The notes beneath the pieces are model-generated. The model was given only the letters and a program-made list of their open reading frames with translations. It did no database searches and was not told where the DNA came from. Both the position numbers and the translations under genes were made by a program. A stretch of DNA of 52,296 nucleotides, taken from the NCBI GenBank assembly GCA_039920085.1, contig JBDSEK010000183.1, positions 1-52,296 of the forward strand, read 5' to 3'. The DNA comes from Devosia sp. (GTDB taxonomy: Bacteria; Pseudomonadota; Alphaproteobacteria; Rhizobiales; Devosiaceae). Shown piece after piece: positions 9,153-50,290 of the stretch. The number at the start of each line of letters is the position of its first letter. Positions within the stretch are counted from its first letter, which is position 1.

Positions 9153-9542
9153 CTATTTCGGCGGCGAATAGCCCTTTGGTGCTTCCATCATCAGGCCAAT
9201 CAAATGCCCGTCGGGGTCGCGGATGAAGGCCATCCAGAGGTCGTGGTCGGGCATGGGCGAGATGAGATGCGCCGCGCTGACGATTTCGACGCCTTTCTCC
9301 TCCAGTTCGGCTTGCGCCAGCAACAAATCGGCGACCCGGAAATAGAGCGCGCCCTGGGCCACCAGGGGGCCCTGGCCCTCCTCGGGCGGGGCGAGCATCA
9401 GCCGGGTGCCCGCGCAGTCGAAGAAGGCGAGATCGCCATAGCGGTAGAGCTTCTTCAGCCCCAGGGTCTGTTCGTAAAAGGCCTCGGCGCGGTCGGTGTT
9501 GCTGACCGCGATGGCAATCTGCCCGATCTGGCTGAGCTGCAT
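9153..9542 (-). CDS. VOC/glyoxalase family protein
   Basis: IGQIAIAV...AFY, WMAFIRDPDGHLIGLM. Confidence 0.9.
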   Translation of the reverse strand: MQLSQIGQIAIAVSNTDRAEAFYEQTLGLKKLYRYGDLAFFDCAGTRLMLAPPEEGQGPLVAQGALYFRVADLLLAQAELEEKGVEIVSAAHLISPMPDHDLWMAFIRDPDGHLIGLMMEAPKGYSPPK

Positions 9543-9575
9543 CTTGGCCTCCCAGTAGGAGTCTAGCCGATTGCC

Positions 9576-10817
9576 TCAGCCATCGGGAAGTGCCGAGAGG
9601 CGGGCGCGCAAATAGGCTCGTACGGCCTCGTCGGTGGACAGGCCGATGGAGAGGGTGAGGGCCTGATGCGCCTCGGCCTTCAGGCCCGCTTCGGCGAGCA
9701 GATGGCCGCGAGCGGCCCAATAAGGCTGGTAGGTCTGCATGCGCTTGTCGGCGGCGAGGGACTCGATCTCGCGAAGCGCCACTTCGGCGCCGGCGGTTTC
9801 GGCAAGTGCGATAGCGCGGTTGAGCGCGACGACGGGCGAGTGTGTGCGCGCCAGCAGATGGTCGTAGAGCGAAACGATCACCTGCCAGTTCGCCACGCCA
9901 CCGAGGCGACGGGCCGAATGCGCGGATTGTATGGCGGCCTCGAGTTGGTAGCGGCCGCTGGGGCCGCCACGGCTTGCCTCGCTCAACAGCGTTTCGGCCA
10001 ATCGGATATGCGAGTCATCCCAGAGGCTTGTGTCCTGCTGCTCGAGCGGGACGTAAGCGCCCGCGGCACTGCGTCGGGCGGAACGACGTGCTTCGGCATA
10101 GAGCATCAGCGCCAGCATGCCTTTGGCTTCGGGCTCGTTGGGGAGAAGCGAGATCGCCAGCCGGCCGAGCCAGATCGCCTCCCCAGCCATTTCGGGCGTG
10201 CCGGATTCGTCCAGTTCGCTCCAGCCCTTGGAATAGGCGGCATAAATGGCGTCGAGCACGGCCTCGAGGCGGTCCGGCAGCTCTTCGGGTTCGGGTATTG
10301 CGAAGGGCACGCCGGCGTCCTTGATCCGGGCTTTGGCCCGCACCAGCCGCTGGCCCATGGTTGCCGGTGGGACAAGGAACGCGGCGCCAATATCCTCGGC
10401 GCTCATGCCGAGAATGGTTTGCAGGATCAGCGGCGCTCGCATGCCGGGCTCGATGGCCGGATGAGCGCAGGCGAACATCAGCGCGAGGCGCCTGTCCGGG
10501 ATCGGCTCGGGCGTGTTGGCGGCATCTTCGAGCTCGTCGGCAATCACCTTCAACTGAGCCTCCCCAATCTGGCGCGTCTGGCGACGCCGGAGTGCGTCGG
10601 TCTGCCGGCGCCGCGCCACCGTGAGCAGCCAGGCGTCTGGATTGTCTGGAACGCCCTCAGTCGGCCAAGAGCGGAGTGCGGCGGCGAAGGCTTCGCCGAG
10701 AGCGTCTTCGGCGCCCGCGAGGTCACGGGTGCGGGCGGCGAGGAAGGCGACGAGGCGGCCGTAGCTGTCGCGCGCAACGCGCTCAGCCGTCCGGACCGCC
10801 TCGCCGGCATCGATCAC
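9576..10817 (-). CDS. ECF sigma factor, ECF42-type (C-terminal TPR/DUF6596 extension)
   Basis: Sigma region 2 (AEDALGEAF...W...PDAWLLTVARR), LMFACAHPA, YQLEAAIQ, PVVALNRAIA; GTG at 10817 overlaps the YCII stop. Confidence 0.88.
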   Translation of the reverse strand: MIDAGEAVRTAERVARDSYGRLVAFLAARTRDLAGAEDALGEAFAAALRSWPTEGVPDNPDAWLLTVARRRQTDALRRRQTRQIGEAQLKVIADELEDAANTPEPIPDRRLALMFACAHPAIEPGMRAPLILQTILGMSAEDIGAAFLVPPATMGQRLVRAKARIKDAGVPFAIPEPEELPDRLEAVLDAIYAAYSKGWSELDESGTPEMAGEAIWLGRLAISLLPNEPEAKGMLALMLYAEARRSARRSAAGAYVPLEQQDTSLWDDSHIRLAETLLSEASRGGPSGRYQLEAAIQSAHSARRLGGVANWQVIVSLYDHLLARTHSPVVALNRAIALAETAGAEVALREIESLAADKRMQTYQPYWAARGHLLAEAGLKAEAHQALTLSIGLSTDEAVRAYLRARLSALPDG

Positions 10818-11158
10818 TTCCAGTTGCCTGCCTCCGGGACATGGACGGGACGAATTTCGATCGCGCCATAGCGGCTCGAGGGGCAGCGCTTGGCCCAAGC
10901 CACGGCTACATCGAGATCGGCGGCCTCGACAAAGAAATAGCCGGCGAACTGCTCCTTGGTGTCGGCATAAGGGCCGTCGAGCACGCCGTTGCTTCGCACG
11001 ATGGTTCCGGCCTTTGCCGGCTCGAGCCGCTCGCCGGAGCTCGACCCGTCGGCCTTGGCGAGAGCTTCGTTAAAGGCGGCATAATCGGCCCACAGGGCCT
11101 TCTGATCGGCAGCGGCCATGGCGGCATCGTCGTGGTGGATCAGCATCATATAGCGCAT
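10814..11158 (-). CDS. YCII/DGPF-domain protein
   Basis: MRYMMLIH, DGPYADTKEQFAGYF, IEIRP; usual ECF42 partner. Confidence 0.92.
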   Translation of the reverse strand: MRYMMLIHHDDAAMAAADQKALWADYAAFNEALAKADGSSSGERLEPAKAGTIVRSNGVLDGPYADTKEQFAGYFFVEAADLDVAVAWAKRCPSSRYGAIEIRPVHVPEAGNWK

Positions 11159-11202
11159 TTGGTTCTCCTTTCAGCCGGAGCATAGCGCTCCGATGCTGCA
11201 AT

Positions 11203-11229
11203 GACGCGCGGGCTTTGCGAATTTCGACA
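11203..11229 (-). promoter_or_regulatory. Putative ECF42-type autoregulatory promoter
   Basis: Minus strand TGTCGA-N17-CGTC, 44 nt upstream of the YCII start; resembles the ECF42 motif (-35 TGTCGA, -10 CG(A/T)C). Confidence 0.6.
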
Positions 11230-11273
11230 GGGCGGCGGAAAGAGGGATTTGCGGCCAGAGGCGTCGGCGGAGG

Positions 11274-31662: not shown

Positions 31663-31677
31663 GCCAAGCGCGCCCAA

Positions 31678-32070
31678 TCAACGCGACGGCTCGATAGTGC
31701 GGCGGAGGCCGAAGGCGGCGAGCAGGATGACCATCACGATGCGCAGCCCCAGATTGAGCGCGATGGGAAGCGACCACGCCTGTGCGAGGGCGATCGCATC
31801 TGCAATGGCGGAGGCGGCGTGGAAGACAAGCAGGGTGGTGGTGGCGAGGCGCAACACGTCATGGCTGGGCGAATGGACGGAGCCGATGCAGAGCGCGGCG
31901 ATGCCGATCTCGGCGGCGCCGAGCAGCCAAGCGACAAAAGCTTGATCCGGCGCCAGCGCGATGCCGACAACCGACGGAATGGCGCCAGGGAAGACGAACA
32001 GCATGATGCCTGCCGCTAGGGTGGCGATGGCGTTGATGAGGATGAGGGTGCGGAGGATGGTGAGGCGCAT
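31678..32070 (-). CDS. Hypothetical 4-TM membrane protein
   Basis: Four hydrophobic helices. Confidence 0.7.
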   Translation of the reverse strand: MRLTILRTLILINAIATLAAGIMLFVFPGAIPSVVGIALAPDQAFVAWLLGAAEIGIAALCIGSVHSPSHDVLRLATTTLLVFHAASAIADAIALAQAWSLPIALNLGLRIVMVILLAAFGLRRTIEPSR

Positions 32071-32097
32071 GAGTGGGAGGTTAGCGCAGAACGTCTG

Positions 32098-32268
32098 TTA
32101 AATCGGGCGACAAACGTGGCGGCTTTCGCCACCGATGGTAAGCCTTGCGGTGTCCCCGGCGACGCGGATGGGCTTTGGGAGAGCCGGGTCGGCGGGATCG
32201 TTGAAGCCTTCGTCGAGCGCCCGCGACGCCTCCTCGATGCCGGCGGATTGGGCCGCGGCCGGCGATTT
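32098..32268 (-). pseudogene. Possible startless 3' gene remnant at the island boundary
   Basis: 56 open codons with host-like usage (KSPAAAQSAGIEEASRALDEGFNDPADP...) ending in TAA; no start codon before an in-frame stop inside hamB. Confidence 0.3.
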
Positions 32269-32269
32269 G

Positions 32270-34381
32270 CTATTCGAGCGCCGCGGCTAGAATGAACCTG
32301 TCTATTTCTGACAAATCCTTGTCACTCTCCCATCCGGACAATCGAAGCGAGGTCAACGCTTCGAACCGATCTTTAGAGTTACCAACTAGGCGAGTGATAC
32401 GCTCGCTTAGAGGAATTGGGATGCCCGCTTCCTCAAGCTGCTTCATCCAAATCGGTCGAAACCAATTCTCGAGTCCGACGGCGAACACGCTGTAATTGGG
32501 TGCAATCTCCGTTTGATCCAGCGCGACCAAGGCCTGAATTGCTCCAATCGTCCGCGGAAACGAAAATTCACACGCTTGAAGAAACTGAAATGCCGCGTCC
32601 AATCCTGCTCGGCGGTCCCCTCGTGAGAATACGTGGACGAACCAATGAAGAAATCCCGGAAGGGTCTTTATGCTTCCCAACTGGGACCACGCCCAAGCGA
32701 CTTGCTTGGCAGTGTGAATGCCAACAGAATCTTGGCGCGCGTGTGCCACCTGAAGGACAATATCAGCTAGCGTTACGCGCTGCTCTTTGGTCGGATAGCC
32801 TGTCCACTCCAGTAGCGATGGATCTTCGTCGAGAACTGAAAAAATGCACTCGCGCATAAGGATCAGCGCCTCGATGCCGATGGCACCGTGTTCCCGGATA
32901 ATGTCCAGCGGTATGCCCGTCACCGAGGCCAAGTTGTCCTGCCGCGTTTGGCCTGCAGGCGACAGTTGGGGGCGCTCAACGTTCGCGACTATGTAGTCGC
33001 TCGCATGCTCCGGGTTGCTCAGGACAGGAACCTCGACATGTGTCTCAACTTCCGCCGGTGGCGAGTGATACAAGAACGCATTGCCCACGAAATGTCGCAT
33101 CATCCGACCTACCCGTCCGCGAATGTTGGCGAATGAGAAAAAGTCAAAGTCGGTGCGATTGATCTTTTTGTCGTAGATAAAGACATTCGCCGCGGACGTA
33201 TTGACGCCCTCAATCAAAGTTGACGTGCAGATCAGGACCTTTAGCTCCCCGGCATCGAACAACCGGACAAACAGTTGGCCTAGAGAACGAGGCAATCGAC
33301 CGTGATGCACCGCGATACCCGCGTCCGCACCGGCGGCCACCAGCCACTCGTCGTGATAGTTCTTAGCGATCCATTTTCCAAGCTTAGGACCCAGATCTGA
33401 CTTGTAGTTGATACCGGCATCTCGAATTGCTTGAAGAAGGTCCTGCGCACTTCCAGGCGTAGCGGTGAATACGAGAGAACTCTCGTCACCAACCGATCGA
33501 AGGTCAGCGAGAAACGCTTCCTCGCGGCTGCCGGAAGCACTTCTGTCAATGATGTTGACCGTCACGGTCCGATAGTCAGTCCGAACAAATCTGAAGTTTC
33601 CGGTCCAGTGGTCACCAAGGGAGATGTCCCTTATGTGGGGGCCGGCCATAAAGCATTGCTTGGCTTGGGGCAGCGCCCGATAGACTGCTAGGTTCAGCGT
33701 TTCAAATCGACCATCGTCGCGGGATGGATCGAGTTTGTAAAACTCGTCCACAAAAAGCAGATCGATCCGTAGCTTGTCCTTCCGTTGCAGAAAGCGCTCT
33801 TGAGTGAGCACGAAGACGGTTGGCTCATCTTCCGAGTAATGGTCGGAGGTTGTCGTGAGGATCCGGAAGCGCTCACCAAAGTGTCGCTTTAGTCGGCGAC
33901 GACACTCATCGATCAACGCGATAGTCGGTAGGATCATCACCACAGTGTGAGGCGATGCCTTTTGAATAAATGCATCGACGAGCAAGCTCTTGCCGAAGCT
34001 CGTGGGCGCGCTCAAAATGACGTTGTCGCCGGCAAGCAGCCACAACAGGACCTGCATCTGTTTGGTATGGAGATAGAGCTTATCTCCAAGCGTTACCGAG
34101 TGGGCCTCCATCAGCGTCTGGGTTGCTAGGCTGAGGTCTTGTGCGTCTACATAGGGGAATAGACCGCAAGCTTGAGCCAGTAGGTCGACGGCTCCGTCTG
34201 AACCCTTAGGAAGCTGCCGGTTCCGCTTCGCCTCCAACAGCCGAATAGCGGTTTCTAGGGCGTCGCTTGATTCCCTGTCCGTTTCCGCGAGGACCGCGCC
34301 TGCGTCAAAGATGGAGGAAAAGACATCCTCCGAGCTGAGTTGCTCGTCGCCTCCTAGAGACCTTAGCCGCTCAAGGCTCAT
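32270..34381 (-). CDS. hamB: Hachiman HamB-type SF2 (Ski2-like) helicase
   Basis: SAPTSFGKS Walker A, VDEFYK, HHG, CTSTLIEGVN, NIRGRVGRM; ATGA overlap with the DUF1837 gene; atypical codon usage. Confidence 0.88.
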   Translation of the reverse strand: MSLERLRSLGGDEQLSSEDVFSSIFDAGAVLAETDRESSDALETAIRLLEAKRNRQLPKGSDGAVDLLAQACGLFPYVDAQDLSLATQTLMEAHSVTLGDKLYLHTKQMQVLLWLLAGDNVILSAPTSFGKSLLVDAFIQKASPHTVVMILPTIALIDECRRRLKRHFGERFRILTTTSDHYSEDEPTVFVLTQERFLQRKDKLRIDLLFVDEFYKLDPSRDDGRFETLNLAVYRALPQAKQCFMAGPHIRDISLGDHWTGNFRFVRTDYRTVTVNIIDRSASGSREEAFLADLRSVGDESSLVFTATPGSAQDLLQAIRDAGINYKSDLGPKLGKWIAKNYHDEWLVAAGADAGIAVHHGRLPRSLGQLFVRLFDAGELKVLICTSTLIEGVNTSAANVFIYDKKINRTDFDFFSFANIRGRVGRMMRHFVGNAFLYHSPPAEVETHVEVPVLSNPEHASDYIVANVERPQLSPAGQTRQDNLASVTGIPLDIIREHGAIGIEALILMRECIFSVLDEDPSLLEWTGYPTKEQRVTLADIVLQVAHARQDSVGIHTAKQVAWAWSQLGSIKTLPGFLHWFVHVFSRGDRRAGLDAAFQFLQACEFSFPRTIGAIQALVALDQTEIAPNYSVFAVGLENWFRPIWMKQLEEAGIPIPLSERITRLVGNSKDRFEALTSLRLSGWESDKDLSEIDRFILAAALE

Positions 34382-35220
34382 AGGAAAGGCACAAGGAGTT
34401 GATCGAACTTCTCGACTAAGTCCTTCTTCTTGTTCAGCGGGACGAAAACCAAGTGAAAGCGAAGTCTCAAGTCGGTCACACGCTCGGCGAAGAAGGAACG
34501 AAGGCCTTCAACTTCGGCGGCTATCGATTTGGTATATTCGTCGCACAACTTGTCGAACGATCCGACTGCGTCACTGTCGTAAGCGATGAGAATTGGGAAT
34601 GCCGCCATTTCCAAGAGTTTGTCACCCGAGGTTGTTGACTTGAATAACGCCAACACCTCGTCTCGATGGGGCACGTCTGGGGCAACATGACCGAAGATCA
34701 TGGCCTTCTCGGTGTCCAAAAAGGTCGGAAGGAGGTGCGTACGGACCGACGAGATAGCGTCAGTGATGGCATCCTTCGGATTTGTGTAAAATTTGGATTC
34801 TCCAAGCCAAATTTCAAAGCCGGCCCCAGTCCTAAGAAGGTGAATTCCGTCGAAACCTTTGACTGTGTCGTTGGATGATGTCTTCAGCACAAGCTTGCAG
34901 ATTATCGGGACGGTTTCGAATTCGGAAATACATGCGATGTGCAACAGGAGTTCTCCAAGTTCACCGCGAGTGTCCGTTCGTCTAGTCTTGTAGATATGGG
35001 CAGCGGCAAGTCGAAGCATCTCAACAAAATTGTCGGACCCAAATCCTGACTGCATGTCCTGGCTAAGAGCTATGTAAGGCAGCCACTGAAAGAGGTGCTC
35101 GGCCAACCGCTTACTGCGCCAAGCGCCACCATCGTAGCCCGCGCACAGGCAACGCATTTGGACTGAATCAACAAAGTAAGATGCCCTGACTTCCAAGAAA
35201 GCATCAGGGAATTTGATCAT
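34378..35220 (-). CDS. hamA: Hachiman HamA-type DUF1837 PD-(D/E)xK nuclease
   Basis: GELGELLLH, VKGFDGIH, IWLGESKFY, FPILIAY, FHLVFVPL; 280 aa directly upstream of the helicase. Confidence 0.88.
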   Translation of the reverse strand: MIKFPDAFLEVRASYFVDSVQMRCLCAGYDGGAWRSKRLAEHLFQWLPYIALSQDMQSGFGSDNFVEMLRLAAAHIYKTRRTDTRGELGELLLHIACISEFETVPIICKLVLKTSSNDTVKGFDGIHLLRTGAGFEIWLGESKFYTNPKDAITDAISSVRTHLLPTFLDTEKAMIFGHVAPDVPHRDEVLALFKSTTSGDKLLEMAAFPILIAYDSDAVGSFDKLCDEYTKSIAAEVEGLRSFFAERVTDLRLRFHLVFVPLNKKKDLVEKFDQLLVPFL

Positions 35221-35278
35221 TCGCTAGTGATCACGCAATTCTAGCGAATGCACAATCCCGCAGCATAGACCTTATTGA

Positions 35279-35308
35279 GAACATAGCAAGAACAGCTGCG
35301 CGGCGCAA
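35279..35308 (-). promoter_or_regulatory. LexA (SOS) box overlapping a sigma70-like promoter of hamAB
   Basis: GAAC-ATAGCAA-GAAC at 35279-35293; minus strand TTGCGC-N17-TATGTT (35308-35280), with the box covering the -10 element. Confidence 0.72.
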
Positions 35309-35344
35309 ACTCCTAGTCGATGCGCTACCAAGTCCCCCCGATTA

Positions 35345-38074
35345 CTACTCGTCGTTTGAAGCGTCGAGCGTATCCAGTTCCATAGTCCGCAACCGCTTCA
35401 CCTCATCCCTCAGCCTCGCCGCCTTCTCAAACTCCAAATTCGTCGCCGCCTCGCGCATCTGCTTTTCGATGTCCTTGATCACGGCGGCCAGGTTCGCGCC
35501 CACCTGCAGCTGTTCCTTGCCGCTCTTGTCCTTGCCGATCGAAATCGTGACGTGGTCCTTTTCGTAGATCGAATCCACGATCTCCTTGATGTTGGACTTC
35601 ACACTCTGCGGTGTAATGCCGTTCGCTTCGTTGAAGGCCATCTGCTTTTCGCGGCGGCGGTTGGTTTCGGCCAAGGCCCGGGCCATGCTGCCGGTTTCGT
35701 GGTCGGCGTAGAGGATGACCTTGCCGTCGACGTTGCGCGCGGCTCGACCAATGGTCTGGATCAATGAGGTCTCGGAGCGCAGGAACCCTTCCTTGTCGGC
35801 ATCGAGGATCGCAACGAGGGCGCATTCGGGGATGTCGAGGCCTTCGCGCAGCAAATTGATGCCGACCAGCACGTCGAAGACGCCGAGCCGCAGATCGCGG
35901 ATGATCTCGATGCGCTCGATGGTGTCGATGTCGGAGTGCATGTAGCGGACGCGGATGCCCTGTTCGTGCATGTATTCGGTGAGGTCTTCCGCCATCTTCT
36001 TGGTGAGCACGGTGACCAGCGTGCGGTAGCCGGCTTTGGCGACGCTGCGGATCTCGTCGACGACGTCGTCGACCTGGGTCTTGGCCGGGCGCACTTCGAC
36101 CGGTGGATCGATGAGGCCGGTGGGGCGGATGACCTGCTCGGCGAAGACGCCGCCGGCCTGTTCCATCTCCCACGCGCCGGGGGTGGCCGAGACATAGATT
36201 GTCTGCGGGCGCATGGCGTTCCACTCCTCGAAGCGGAGCGGGCGGTTGTCCATGGCCGAGGGCAGGCGGAAGCCATATTCGGCGAGCGTCGCCTTGCGCC
36301 GAAGGTCGCCGCGATACATGGCGCCGAGCTGGCCGATGGTGACGTGGCTCTCATCGACAAAAACCAGCGCATTGTCGGGCAGATATTCGAACAGGGTGGG
36401 CGGCGGCTCGCCGGCTTTGCGGCCGGAGAAATAGCGCGAATAATTCTCGATGCCGGCGCAGGAGCCGGTGGCTTCCATCATCTCAAGATCGAACAGGGTG
36501 CGCTGCTCGAGGCGCTGCGCTTCGAGGAAGCGGCCGGCGCCGTTGAGCTCCTGCAGGCGCCCCGCCAGCTCTTGGCGGATAAGCTTGATGGCGCCGGTGA
36601 GGGTGGCGCGCGGCGTCACGTAGTGGCTGTTGGCGAACACGCGGATGAACAGCAGGTCGGAGCTTTTCTTGCCGGTGAGCGGATCGAACTCCTGGATGGA
36701 TTCGATCTCGTTGCCGAACAAAGTGATGCGCCAGGCGGCGTCCTCATAGTGGGCCGGGAACAGCTCGATGGTGTCGCCGCGCACGCGGAAGGTGCCGCGC
36801 ACGAAGCCGGTGTCGCCGCGCTTGTATTGCAGGTCGGTGAGGCCGCGGAGCAGCGCGCGCTGGTCGATGGTCTGGCCCTTGCGGAGATCGAAGGTCATGG
36901 CTGTGTAGTCTTCGACCGAGCCGATGCCATAGATGCAGCTCACCGAAGCGACGATGATGACGTCGTCGCGTTCGAGCAGCGCCCGCGTCGCCGAGTGGCG
37001 CATGCGGTCGATCTGCTCGTTGATGGTGGATTCCTTCTCGATATAAGTGTCGGTGCGCGGCACATAGGCTTCGGGCTGGTAGTAGTCGTAATAGGAGACG
37101 AAATACTCGACTGCGTTTTCGGGGAAGAAGCTCTTCATCTCGCCATAGAGCTGCGCGGCGAGGGTCTTGTTGGGGGCGAGGATCAGCGCCGGGCGCTGGG
37201 TGCGCATGATGGTCTGCGCCGCGGTGAAGGTCTTGCCCGAGCCGGTGACGCCGAGCAGGACCTGGTCGGTCTCGCCATTATCGATGCCCTCGACGATATC
37301 GGCGATGGCGGTGGGCTGGTCGCCGGCGGGCTGGTAGGTCGTCACCAGCTTGAACGGGATGCCGCCTTCGGACTTTTCGCGCGGCGCGGGACGGTGCGGA
37401 CGCCAGGCCTCATTGCCCTCCACCTCCTTGCGGCCGTGCAGAATGATGTCTTCCAGCGCCCTGACGGTGGCGGAGATGCCGACAGTCTGCGCGCCTTCGA
37501 GGTTCTGGCCGGGCAGGGCGACTTTCTTGCCGGGGATACGGGAGCCGGGGACCCTCACCCGGCCGGTCTCATTTGCTGCGCGCTGGCGCGTCGCCGGTGG
37601 GCCACCCTCTCCCCCCTGGGGAGAGGGGACGGAGGCACGCGCCGTGTCGGTCGCACCTGCGAGGGCTTCTCGCATCGTCGCCATAACCGACGGGTCCTTG
37701 GCGGCGGCGCGGGAGATGTCGCGGGCGGTAATCCGTCCGGTTGAAGGGACATGCCCGAAGCCCGCCTGTTGTTGTTCGCCGAAGCCAGAGAAGTCCGGAC
37801 GCTCCACGCCATTGGCCTTGGATTTGGGCGATTTGAGCGACATGCCCGTCGCGGCCGAGCGCTTGCCCTTGCCTTTCCCCTTGTCGACCAGAGGTTGGGG
37901 CACAAGTTCGCCGGTGGTGCCTGCCTTTTCGGCGGCGCGGCGGGCGGCGTTGTCGAGCTGGCGCTTGTTCCGCAGCCGCTCCTGCGGCAGCCGCTTGTTC
38001 AGCCGTTCGGCCTCGGCCTTCTCGATCTCGCCGATGAACTCATCGATGGAAAAGTCGGGTTGCTTCTCGGCCAT
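35345..38074 (-). CDS. uvrB: Excinuclease ABC subunit B with long N-terminal extension
   Basis: [48 protein letters not shown]-terminal UVR domain. Confidence 0.98.
37551..37628. repeat. Palindromic repeat element inserted in frame in uvrB
   Basis: ACCCTCACCCGGCC-N34-GGGCCACCCTCTCCC-ccctg-GGGAGAGGGG; conserved blocks identical to 31050-31097. Confidence 0.8.
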
Positions 38075-40822: not shown

Positions 40823-43800
40823 ATGGTGGGGCCGCTGCAGATCGCAGGAAGAAGGGTGACGCGATGGGCCGCGGCGCTGCTGGCTGTCGTGCTGCTGGCG
40901 CTCGTGGCGCTGCCGGCGTGGGCCGATCCGGCTGACGATCTCGCGGCGCGGGTCGCGGCGATCGAGGCGGTGTTGGCGGACAAGGACGGGGTCGCGGCGG
41001 AGCCGCTGGCCGTTGAGGCGTTGGCGCTGGCCGAAGCGACCATCGGCGCGGACAGCCTCGAGGTCGCCAATCTCAACCGGCTGCTGGGCGACGCCTATTT
41101 CTATCAGGAGCGGTTCGCCGAGGCGGAGCCCCACTACCGTGTGGCCTTTGCGCTGCGCGAGAAGCGGCTCGGCACCAATGATGTCGACACGGCGGTGTCG
41201 GCGAATGATCTCGCCATCATCCTCAAGCGGCTGAAGCGCTTCACCGAGTCGCAGATCTACTACGAGAAGGTGCTGGCGATCCGCGAGGGGCTGTTCGGCG
41301 AGAATTCGCCCGAGGAGGCGAAAGCGAATTTCGAGCTGGCGCGGATCATCGGGCTGAATGGTAAAGGCGTCGAAGCCGCGGCGATGATGGATCGTGCCAT
41401 CGCCAAAGCGGCGATCGCCTATGGGCCGAACGATCCGACATTGGCCGACTGGATGATCGAAAAGGCCGCGATCCTGCACGAAGCCGGTGAAACCGAGCTG
41501 GCCGAGACGGCCTATGTCCAAGCCATTGCGTTTGGCGAGAGCGTCTATTCGCCGGACGACACACTGCTTGCCTATGCACGGCAGTCGCTGGGCTTCATCT
41601 ACTACGAGACGGGACGGAGCGCGCAGGCAGTACCGCTCTATAGGGCCGCGCTGGCGGTGCGCGAGACGGCGATGGGGCCGGATGCCCCGGCAACGATCAG
41701 CAATGCCTATCGGCTGGCGCAGGCGTTGTGGGCAATCGACGAAATCGCCGAGGCCGAAGCGATGTTCCGGCGCGTGCTGGCGGCGCGCGAGACTTCCGAT
41801 GGCCCGGCCTCGCTTTCGGTCGCCGACGCGCTGCGCTGGATCGGCCGCGCAGCAGCGGCGCAGAACCGGCGGGCGGAAGCCGAGATCGTGTTGAAGCGCG
41901 CGCTAGCGATTTCCCAGGTGCAGCTTGGGCCCGAGGATGTGCTCACCGGCTTTGACCTCATCGCGCTGGGCCAGCTTTATCTCGGGCAGGAACGCTTCGC
42001 CGAGGCGCGGCCACTGCTCGAGCGCGCAGTGGCGGTGTTCGATCTGTCCGAGGAAAACCGCAGCAGCGCCGCAGCCGGGCGGATGGCGCTGTCGCTGCTC
42101 GCCCATACAACCGGCGACAACAAGGGAGCGATAGCGCAGGCCGAGGCGTCACTGGCGGATATGCGCGCGCTGCACGGCGTCGAGAGCCGCGACGCGGCCG
42201 ATGTGATGCTCTCGCTCGCCTTCTACCAGCTGGAAGCGGGCGAGACTGATGAGGCCGAGCGGCTGGTGGGCGCCGTGCGCGATATTTACGCCAATGTGGC
42301 GCCCGACAGCGGCGCGGCGGTGCGGGCGACGAGCCAACTGGGCCGCATCCGCGAGGCCGAAGGCGATTATGAGGCGGCAATTGCGCTGCACCGCTCCGCG
42401 CTCGCGACGCTCACGGCGCGCTATGGCGCGGGCAGCGCGGAAATCCAGCCGGCGCTGGCGGATCTGGGCAACAGCCTGTTCGGCACCGGCGATATTGAAG
42501 GGGCGGCCAAGGCGTTTGCGCAAGCGGCGGCGATTGTCGAGCGACTGGCGGCGGTTGATAGTGAAACGGCGTTCCTGTCGCGTACCGGCGATGTCGAGGA
42601 TCAGGCGATTGCGCGGGCGCGGGTGTTCGATGATCTGATCAAGGCCAATTACCGGCTCGCCGAATCGGTGCCGGAGAAAGCGGCGGACTATTCGACCGAG
42701 GCCTTTGCGGCGGCGCAGCGGGTGACGGAGTCGGAAGCCGCGGGCGCTCTGGCGCAGATGGCAGCGCGGCAGGCGGCGGGCAGCGGCGAACTCGCGGCAC
42801 TGGTGCGTGAGCGACAGGATCTGGTTGCAGGGTGGCAGCGGCAGGACAGCGCTTTGACGCAGGCGCTGGCCGACGAAGCGCCCGATCGCGACGGGATCGC
42901 GGCGCTGCGGCAAGCGCTGGACGAGAGCGATGCGCGGATCGCCGCAATCGATGCGCGTCTCTTGAGTTCCTATCCGGGCTTCGCCGCCCTGCAGCGACCG
43001 GCCGCGCTGAGTGCCGAAGCAGTGCAGGCGCGGCTCGGGGACAATGAGGTACTGCTGTTCTTTGCCGATACAGGTGCACTTGCGGGCAGCGAGGCCGAGA
43101 CGTTCCTGTGGATCGTGCCCAAGGCCGGCGAAATGCGCTGGCTGCGCCTGTCACGGACCAGCGGCGAACTCTCGGCGGCGGTGCGAGAATTGCGCAACAG
43201 CATGGGGGTCGGCGCGGTGACGCGTGGGCCGAACGCGGTGGCGCGGCAGCAAGGGTCGGACCGGACCAGCAAGGTGCTCGAGGCGGCGCATGCGCTTTAT
43301 GGTGCGGTGCTTGGTGAAGCGGAAGCGATGATCGCGGGGCGCGATCTGGTGATTGTGCCGTCGCGTTCGCTGTCGGCGCTGCCGTTCCACGCGCTGGTGG
43401 CAGAGTTGCCGCCAGCCAGTTCGGCGGACCGCTATCGCGATGCACGGTGGGTGGCGCGCGAGCATGCCATCACCATCCTGCCGTCGGTGGCGTCGCTTTC
43501 GCCTGAGACGGAGAACGCCGGCGCGACGGAGATAAGCCGCACGGCCTATGTGGCTTTCGCCAATCCGCTGCTGGTGGGACGCCGCGGCACGGATCGGCGG
43601 GCCTTCAATCGGACTGGCTGCGCGCCGGTGATTGCGGTCGCGGAGGCGGATGAAGAGATCGCGCTGCCGGCGCCGTCGGCGCTGTTCCGGGGCGCCGAGG
43701 CGGATGTCGCGGCGGTGCGCGCTCTGCCGCCCTTGCCGGAGACGATTGACGAGGTGTGCGCCATCGCGGAATTGCTCGGCGCCGATGCGGGAGCGCTGCA

Positions 43801-44323
43801 TCTGGGCGCCGAGGCGAGCGAGGCGAATGTCAAAGATTTGTCCGCCCATGCGCAACTGGCGCAGGCGCGGGTGGTGCACTTTGCGACGCATGGTCTGGTG
43901 GCAGGCGATCTGAGCGGGCTGGCAGAGCCGGCGATCGTCCTGACGCCGCCCGAAACTGCCAGCACCGACGACGACGGACTGCTGACGGCGTCGGAGGTGA
44001 CGCTACTGAAGCTCGATGCCGATTGGGTGATCCTCTCGGCCTGCAACACGGCGGCCAGCGACGGCGGCGGCGAAGCGCTGTCGGGTCTCGCCCGCGCCTT
44101 CTTCTACGCCGGCGCGCGAGCGCTAATGGTGTCGCACTGGCCGGTAAGCTCCGGCGCGGCGGTGCGCCTCGCCAGCGGCGCGATGGCCGAATTGTCGGCG
44201 TCGCCGGAGATCGGCCGCGCGGAAGCGCTACGCCGCGCCATGGTGACCGAGATCGAAGCTGGTGGGGCGCGCGCCGACCCCGCGAGCTGGGCACCCTTCA
44301 TCGTGGTGGGCGCCTCGCGATAG
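40823..44323 (+). CDS. Secreted TPR-repeat plus CHAT (caspase-like) protease
   Basis: Signal peptide ending PAWA, many TPRs, LPFHAL, HFATHG (His), LSACNTA (Cys), GLARAFFYAGA, SHWPV, WAPF. Confidence 0.92.
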   Translation: MVGPLQIAGRRVTRWAAALLAVVLLALVALPAWADPADDLAARVAAIEAVLADKDGVAAEPLAVEALALAEATIGADSLEVANLNRLLGDAYFYQERFAEAEPHYRVAFALREKRLGTNDVDTAVSANDLAIILKRLKRFTESQIYYEKVLAIREGLFGENSPEEAKANFELARIIGLNGKGVEAAAMMDRAIAKAAIAYGPNDPTLADWMIEKAAILHEAGETELAETAYVQAIAFGESVYSPDDTLLAYARQSLGFIYYETGRSAQAVPLYRAALAVRETAMGPDAPATISNAYRLAQALWAIDEIAEAEAMFRRVLAARETSDGPASLSVADALRWIGRAAAAQNRRAEAEIVLKRALAISQVQLGPEDVLTGFDLIALGQLYLGQERFAEARPLLERAVAVFDLSEENRSSAAAGRMALSLLAHTTGDNKGAIAQAEASLADMRALHGVESRDAADVMLSLAFYQLEAGETDEAERLVGAVRDIYANVAPDSGAAVRATSQLGRIREAEGDYEAAIALHRSALATLTARYGAGSAEIQPALADLGNSLFGTGDIEGAAKAFAQAAAIVERLAAVDSETAFLSRTGDVEDQAIARARVFDDLIKANYRLAESVPEKAADYSTEAFAAAQRVTESEAAGALAQMAARQAAGSGELAALVRERQDLVAGWQRQDSALTQALADEAPDRDGIAALRQALDESDARIAAIDARLLSSYPGFAALQRPAALSAEAVQARLGDNEVLLFFADTGALAGSEAETFLWIVPKAGEMRWLRLSRTSGELSAAVRELRNSMGVGAVTRGPNAVARQQGSDRTSKVLEAAHALYGAVLGEAEAMIAGRDLVIVPSRSLSALPFHALVAELPPASSADRYRDARWVAREHAITILPSVASLSPETENAGATEISRTAYVAFANPLLVGRRGTDRRAFNRTGCAPVIAVAEADEEIALPAPSALFRGAEADVAAVRALPPLPETIDEVCAIAELLGADAGALHLGAEASEANVKDLSAHAQLAQARVVHFATHGLVAGDLSGLAEPAIVLTPPETASTDDDGLLTASEVTLLKLDADWVILSACNTAASDGGGEALSGLARAFFYAGARALMVSHWPVSSGAAVRLASGAMAELSASPEIGRAEALRRAMVTEIEAGGARADPASWAPFIVVGASR

Positions 44324-50275: not shown

Positions 50276-50290
50276 GAACAAATAGAGAAC
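50276..50290 (-). promoter_or_regulatory. LexA (SOS) box upstream of dinB
   Basis: GAAC-AAATAGA-GAAC, 20 nt upstream of the dinB start; TTGACA on the minus strand at 50309-50304. Confidence 0.85.

Follow-up and report, generated by a model that had tools for sequence, protein, structure and literature searches.

We analysed a 52,296-nucleotide (nt) stretch of Devosia sp. DNA (the window; assembly GCA_039920085.1, contig JBDSEK010000183.1) that carries the two-gene anti-phage system Hachiman, hamAB, downstream of uvrB. Upstream of hamA lies a site that resembles the LexA operators of the same genome. Since this host-type LexA box covers a predicted promoter, LexA likely represses the operon. 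We favour the reading, with a probability of about 0.68, that LexA holds hamAB down until the SOS response sets in, and that DNA damage would then act twice, by increasing HamAB and by providing its trigger. The features that matter most are the following:

32270..34381, minus strand: hamB, encoding a Ski2-like helicase of 703 amino acids (aa) that belongs to the AbpB clade (PADLOC HamB, 2.6e-195; structure 8zue_B, E-value 9e-72).
34378..35220, minus strand: hamA, encoding a 280-aa nuclease without a Cap4 N-terminal fusion (PADLOC HamA, 1.2e-96; Pfam PF08878, DUF1837).
35279..35293, no strand assigned: predicted LexA operator GAAC-N7-GAAC (21.2 bits, rank 9, one mismatch from the box of the ssb-like gene).
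50276..50290, no strand assigned: box of the dinB-like gene, used as an in-window control (25.0 bits, member of the training set).

On the forward strand the predicted operator reads GAACATAGCAAGAAC, on the gene strand GTTCTTGCTATGTTC (GTTC-N7-GTTC). It starts 51 nt from the uvrB stop (35345) and lies 58 nt before the ATG of hamA (35220), within a uvrB-hamA gap of 124 nt. Its coordinates and spacing are those given in the initial annotation, which had also placed the same motif in front of dinB; that box is indeed present, 20 nt ahead of a gene of the Pfam IMS family. The bare motif occurs three times in the window, compared to a mean of 1.23 in shuffled sequences, and since 14 of 100 shuffles reach three this is not beyond chance; across the 2.48-megabase genome it has 70 matches. 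We therefore scored the site along the lines that the initial annotation had proposed, using a LexA matrix built from ten SOS-gene boxes of the host genome (the genome scan was restricted to positions where a half-site begins with GA). The hamA box scores 21.2 bits, which falls among the training boxes (20.5–25.0), and ranks ninth genome-wide, among the boxes of SOS genes. In leave-one-out scoring the training boxes obtain 17.2–23.7 bits and the hamA box 19.2–21.8 bits. When the 124-nt intergenic region is shuffled, 3 of 5000 sequences reach 18 bits. Thus, it is the make-up of the spacer and the position, not the bare motif, that set the box beyond chance, and the site is very probably, as judged by these scores, a genuine LexA operator.

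The host appears equipped to use it. Its LexA is encoded with the Ala-Gly, Ser and Lys motifs of a cleavable repressor, and lexA carries two perfect boxes. Perfect boxes with AT-rich spacers also precede dinB, which is identified by Pfam, and genes that, from their N-termini, we take to be lexA itself, ssb, uvrA, radA, comM, dnaE, imuA and a radical-SAM gene. recA, which was located separately, is present and preceded by overlapping one-mismatch boxes. The host motif agrees with the Caulobacter SOS consensus GTTC-N7-GTTC (10.1101/2025.01.26.634973). The recA promoter region is found twice in assembly G000 (C68:22759 and C91:10784), probably because of a contig-end duplication, and high-scoring boxes ahead of small unnamed genes at C98:215, C14:9506 and C127:329 mark candidate new members of the regulon.

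hamA is followed directly by hamB, with a 4-nt overlap. The D-E(X)K nuclease motif of HamA consists of D124, E141 and K143, and an alignment of 59 homologues shows no variation at these residues. The predicted HamA structure has a predicted local distance difference test (pLDDT) score of 90.3, and its top three Foldseek matches are 8zue_A, 8vxy_A and 8vx9_A. The helicase motifs of HamB (SAPTSFGKS, DEFY and RGRVGRM) align with those of AbpB and are intact. The system is therefore a Hachiman of the AbpB clade whose HamA stands alone and is predicted to be an active nuclease. The AbpAB variant, in which a Cap4-like nuclease is fused to an inactive HamA domain, is ruled out by the intact active site and the absence of an N-terminal extension. 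In the data of run X1, which is probably the source sample, one Logan contig is identical to the window over 31677-35467 and so joins the end of uvrB, the box and both genes. The GC content at third codon positions is 0.59–0.61 in the cassette, compared to 0.80–0.87 in uvrB, uvrC and dinB, and of 63 other genomes of the genus a single one has a HamA match, which is distant. By its composition, the hamAB cassette is foreign. A close relative of it, P0001, is 88% identical.

The region between uvrB and hamA contains further elements that bear on expression:

35280..35308, minus strand: candidate promoter 1, TTGCGC-N17-TATGTT, read from the sequence (-35 at 35308-35303, -10 at 35285-35280); the box covers the -10 element.
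35262..35289, minus strand: candidate promoter 2, TTGCTA-N16-TATGCT, read from the sequence; the box covers the -35 element.
35213..35255, minus strand: inverted repeat with a perfect 10-base-pair (bp) core that pairs the hamA start codon (z-score -2.55; folding equalled by 3 of 200 shuffles).

The first candidate is the promoter that the initial annotation had noted under the box. Its elements and spacing are present as described, but it is one of two weak candidates, neither of which passes a generic sigma-70 scan (0 sites). The hairpin at the start codon could add a translational brake. The hamA leader has no clear Shine-Dalgarno site and contains an upstream open reading frame (ORF) of 11 codons.

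Whether the box belongs to hamA or to the locus depends on what lies behind uvrB in relatives. The cassette sits in the uvrB-uvrC interval, and the upstream gene is:

35345..38074, minus strand: uvrB, a core gene with the same orientation as hamAB, whose 3' end borders a slot of variable cargo.

We compared the DNA downstream of uvrB in 28 of 29 relatives' rows, of which L108 and L085 contribute just 53 and 350 nt; the genome of L096 was covered by a comparison of longer regions. This DNA differs among all relatives compared, indicating variable cargo, and none of the 28 rows has a box near the uvrB stop. A relative that keeps a box at the position of the hamA box whatever its cargo, which the initial annotation had named as the sign of a locus relic, was thus not seen. 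None of the other loci compared matches the hamA intergenic DNA over its full length, and no target-site repeat or mobility gene is evident around the cassette. Boxes do occur elsewhere in the slot. A same-order genome (L103) has one of 21.2 bits at +725 from the uvrB stop, ahead of an unrelated cargo gene, and 4 of 11 same-genus regions downstream of uvrB (up to 12 kb) hold a LexA box 2.4–6 kb away. The gene served by the latter boxes encodes 65 aa, runs opposite to uvrB and was not found in G000; the boxes show no blastn likeness to the DNA upstream of hamA. SOS promoters are thus present in this neighbourhood, but not the one of hamA. A scan with the host LexA matrix found no site of at least 13.9 bits ahead of uvrB itself.

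Several observations concern this slot and its surroundings. The 65-aa gene with its LexA box is conserved in L304, L306, L307 and L308 (G020, G002, G014 and G008), with 18–21.5 bits in these four, and also occurs in L305, L106 and L319; it is possibly an undescribed genus-level SOS gene. In L103/L310 (G060) a boxed 264-aa gene (10466-11260), which we take to be DUF5131-like, is followed in the uvrB slot by a 413-aa partner (9214-10455). In L082-L110 the cargo at the 3' end of uvrB varies across genus and order and often consists of low-GC genes with the look of defence genes, presumably including a phosphatase-kinase pair and HD-domain or ATPase genes. The uvrB ORF carries about 240 extra low-complexity residues ahead of the helicase core, and relatives have frames of similar length. 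Further along the window, positions 40823-44323 encode a 1166-aa TPR-CHAT (caspase-like) protein.

To see how the box is distributed among Hachiman systems, 40 close HamA loci (at least 45% identity) were grouped into 21 clusters, whose hosts are not all alphaproteobacteria. A box of at least 18 bits within 250 nt is found in 4 of the 21 (the window, L002, L150 and L164), compared to 0.023 expected from shuffles, and in none of 45 usable control loci encoding Shedu or SIR2 (47 examined, two too short). L002 and L164 are sister HamAs at different loci, presumably dapA-smpB and groEL. Both keep the arrangement TTGAC-box-TAnAGT facing hamA, each also has a divergent ORF upstream, and viral contigs yielded no instance of their promoter pattern. 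In the host of L002 (G1216) the same motif precedes uvrA- and ssb-like genes. LexA-type boxes in G1216 also lie ahead of two accessory-looking genes (L327 and L332), which we take to be a 323-aa ORF and an adenylosuccinate-synthase-like ORF. Box-bearing HamAs occupy three places in the tree, which requires a minimum of three changes; a single clade is neither shown nor rejected (approximately unbiased test, p = 0.057). Several other sites were not counted: L214-L216 (23.7 bits), where the score is an artefact of an 11-nt tandem repeat; L142 (17.4 bits), where the box faces a divergent gene that we take to be dnaE2-like; and L166, whose perfect core scores 8.6 bits and falls within an upstream ORF. 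A short CAACC..GGTT-like element stands directly before the hamA start in L001, L149, L150, L156, L157, L163 and L166 and is absent from the window.

A second LexA motif, CTGT-N8-ACAG, is found at other copies. In L237, one of seven same-phylum loci, a near-consensus site lies 210 nt before an AbpA-type gene, and the same host has this box ahead of recA. L238, a P4-like satellite at ssrA in E. coli, carries two tandem CTGT-N8-ACAG boxes at -53 and -33 of an AbpAB-type operon; the element occurs in 5 of 5426 genomes and is the one boxed case among seven named gammaproteobacterial or phage records examined. The motif was not found in the other six loci or the other six records, nor within 300 nt upstream of any HamA gene in the scoring of the 21 clusters, and no SOS box precedes K-12 abpA. 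With L229 DNA as the query, no match was found in E. coli. On this sequence evidence, the window holds a genuine Hachiman within a minority of SOS-boxed copies, which are seen with two different LexA motifs. A broader proposal, to which we give somewhat less than an even chance, is that Hachiman entered the SOS regulon of its hosts on several independent occasions, always through the LexA motif that the host itself uses (GAAC-N7-GAAC in alphaproteobacteria, CTGT-N8-ACAG in one further proteobacterium and in E. coli). It would thereby become a two-key, self-amplifying DNA-damage kill switch, armed only once damage or phage replication exceeds the SOS threshold.

Other explanations of the box have to be considered. 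It could be a real LexA site left by an earlier occupant of the slot, whose link to hamAB is incidental or overridden by read-through from uvrB. The boxed 65-aa gene downstream of uvrB in four same-genus regions, the same-order genome with boxes before other slot cargo, the lack of a strong terminator after uvrB and the scatter of box-bearing HamAs over three places in the tree would all fit such a leftover. Yet the same-genus boxes are kilobases away, belong to an opposite-strand gene and have unrelated surroundings, the window box is perfect, and L002 and L164 retain one promoter at different loci; we therefore consider this account unlikely. The site could also be a chance match in AT-rich foreign DNA at which LexA is inactive. 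The 70 bare matches in the genome, the non-significant count in the window and the false scores produced by the tandem repeat in L214-L216 show how such a match may arise, but the rarity of comparable scores among intergenic shuffles, the ninth rank amid SOS-gene boxes and the recurrence of the box before other hamA genes make it quite improbable.

Finally, the cassette could serve DNA repair or genome clean-up, with a Hel308-like HamB co-opted into the SOS regulon between uvrB and uvrC and no kill switch involved. Its location in that interval and the resemblance of HamB to Hel308, also reported in PMC12278908, would suit this function, and inducing a lethal nuclease during repair would appear costly. 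This explanation seems to us very improbable: the nuclease residues of HamA are invariant, a HamA match is almost confined to this genome within the genus, the slot cargo changes among relatives, and the HamAB and AbpAB systems tested so far are reported to sensitise cells to damage (PMC12278908, PMC10732053).

Repression of hamAB by LexA, the reading we prefer, has to be weighed against a number of results. At the locus, no candidate promoter passes the sigma-70 scan, only a 5-bp hairpin and no strong terminator separates uvrB from hamA, and the slot holds LexA boxes of another gene in the four same-genus regions. Among close HamA lineages 17 of 21 have no box. The 18-bit cut-off was chosen after the scores had been seen, and at 20 bits the count falls to 3 of 21. 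The contrast with the control genes has a Fisher p of 0.026, which becomes 0.085 when the sisters L002 and L164 are counted once. The box is not a general Hachiman feature, as none of 36 alphaproteobacterial PF08878 loci sampled at order, class or genus level reaches 18 bits anywhere; L113 (duplicate), L118 (own) and L148 (below the cut-off) were excluded from this set, and a number of the 36 match only weakly and may not be hamAB. The scan of alphaproteobacterial hamAB homologues that the initial annotation had suggested thus recovered boxes in four close lineages, that of the window included, but in no locus of the wider sample. RNA run X16 covers uvrB-like sequence but not hamAB, and the five RNA runs gave small shares; these runs are no evidence either way. 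From the literature, activation of K-12 AbpAB is reported to need neither RecA nor LexA (PMC10732053), but K-12 abpA is boxless; GAPS4 defends without RecA (PMC13748975); and in E. coli datasets the expression of defence genes falls on average as recA rises (10.64898/2025.12.14.694197). All three results come from systems for which no box is shown. Taken together, the LexA/SOS control put forward by the initial annotation is supported in silico by the scoring of the site, the presence of LexA and RecA, the intact HamA and HamB motifs and the relic check, but it does not extend to Hachiman as a whole. The two-tier, suicide and anti-prophage roles it had attached to this control are inferred.

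The proposed mechanism builds on work on other Hachiman systems, for which damage-triggered degradation of DNA and restriction of phages are known (PMC12278908, PMC10732053). On loading at 3' ends of single-stranded DNA, HamB releases HamA, whose nuclease then clears the DNA of phage and host (PMC12278908), and the level of Hachiman expression sets both defence and cost (PMC13064477). In undamaged cells LexA would keep hamAB low. RecA bound to single-stranded DNA would lift the repression and yield more HamAB, and the same single-stranded ends would activate HamB. Cutting by HamA would create more single-stranded DNA and hence more SOS signal. Through such a feed-forward loop the system would respond above a threshold of damage and burden undamaged cells little.

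The closest known system is AbpAB of E. coli K-12, a type I Hachiman (PDB 8ZUE; PMC10732053, PMC13689553), which gives the best structure matches (HamB to AbpB, E-value 9e-72; HamA model to AbpA, E-value 5e-9, template modelling (TM) score 0.65). It shares the 4-nt gene overlap and is triggered by DNA damage (PMC10732053). However, AbpA has the Cap4 N-terminal nuclease and a HamA domain without equivalents of D124, E141 and K143, whereas the window HamA shows the reverse, and the K-12 system, boxless and with RecA/LexA-independent activation, contrasts with the boxed hamA of the window. HamAB of ECOR31 (PDB 8VX9, 8VXY; PMC12278908) resembles the window system in combining a stand-alone D-E(X)K HamA with a Ski2-like HamB. 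The HamA folds match with E-values of 2e-4 to 1.5e-3 and a TM score of about 0.5, but identity in the structural alignment is only 8–9% and the ECOR31 HamB has 1174 aa, compared to 703 aa in the window. The words LexA and SOS are absent from the available text of PMC12278908.

Two further systems resemble the proposed control. In Pez-Ham of Streptococcus thermophilus (PMC13064477) a transcriptional repressor balances the cost and the defence of a Hachiman, as we propose here, but this repressor is the co-encoded PezAT antitoxin and not the global SOS repressor of the host. In Moraxellaceae, anti-phage genes (restriction-modification, CRISPR-Cas and Zorya) are direct targets of DdaA, a regulator of the DNA-damage response (PMC12392091). 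DdaA, however, is an activator of the WYL type that took the place of the SOS system, and Hachiman does not occur in the available text of that paper. The alphaproteobacterial SOS regulon, as described for Caulobacter (10.1101/2025.01.26.634973), has the same motif and a single box at most 200 nt from the gene, whereas in the window the genes behind the box encode a defence nuclease-helicase acquired by horizontal transfer. The Caulobacter study also shows that the level of induction can differ between identical boxes.

DNA-damage control of defence genes (DdaA, PMC12392091) and repression of Hachiman (PezAT, PMC13064477) are thus already known. PezAT is the sole transcriptional control of Hachiman that our literature search retrieved; the search, whose scope ended short of supplementary regulon tables, found no LexA-regulated Hachiman, and the available text of PMC13689553 and PMC13192584 contains nothing on LexA control. 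Hachiman is at once a sensor and a source of DNA damage, and how its premature firing is limited is left open in PMC12278908. A LexA operator would offer a specific answer. If this is true, boxed copies would need RecA, unlike box-less ones such as K-12 AbpAB, and immunity or self-killing would increase under DNA-damaging drugs or when prophages are induced. The two-box E. coli copy (L238) brings the idea within reach of standard laboratory strains. For the cell, LexA control of hamAB could amount to an SOS route to cell death or to the blocking of induced prophages.

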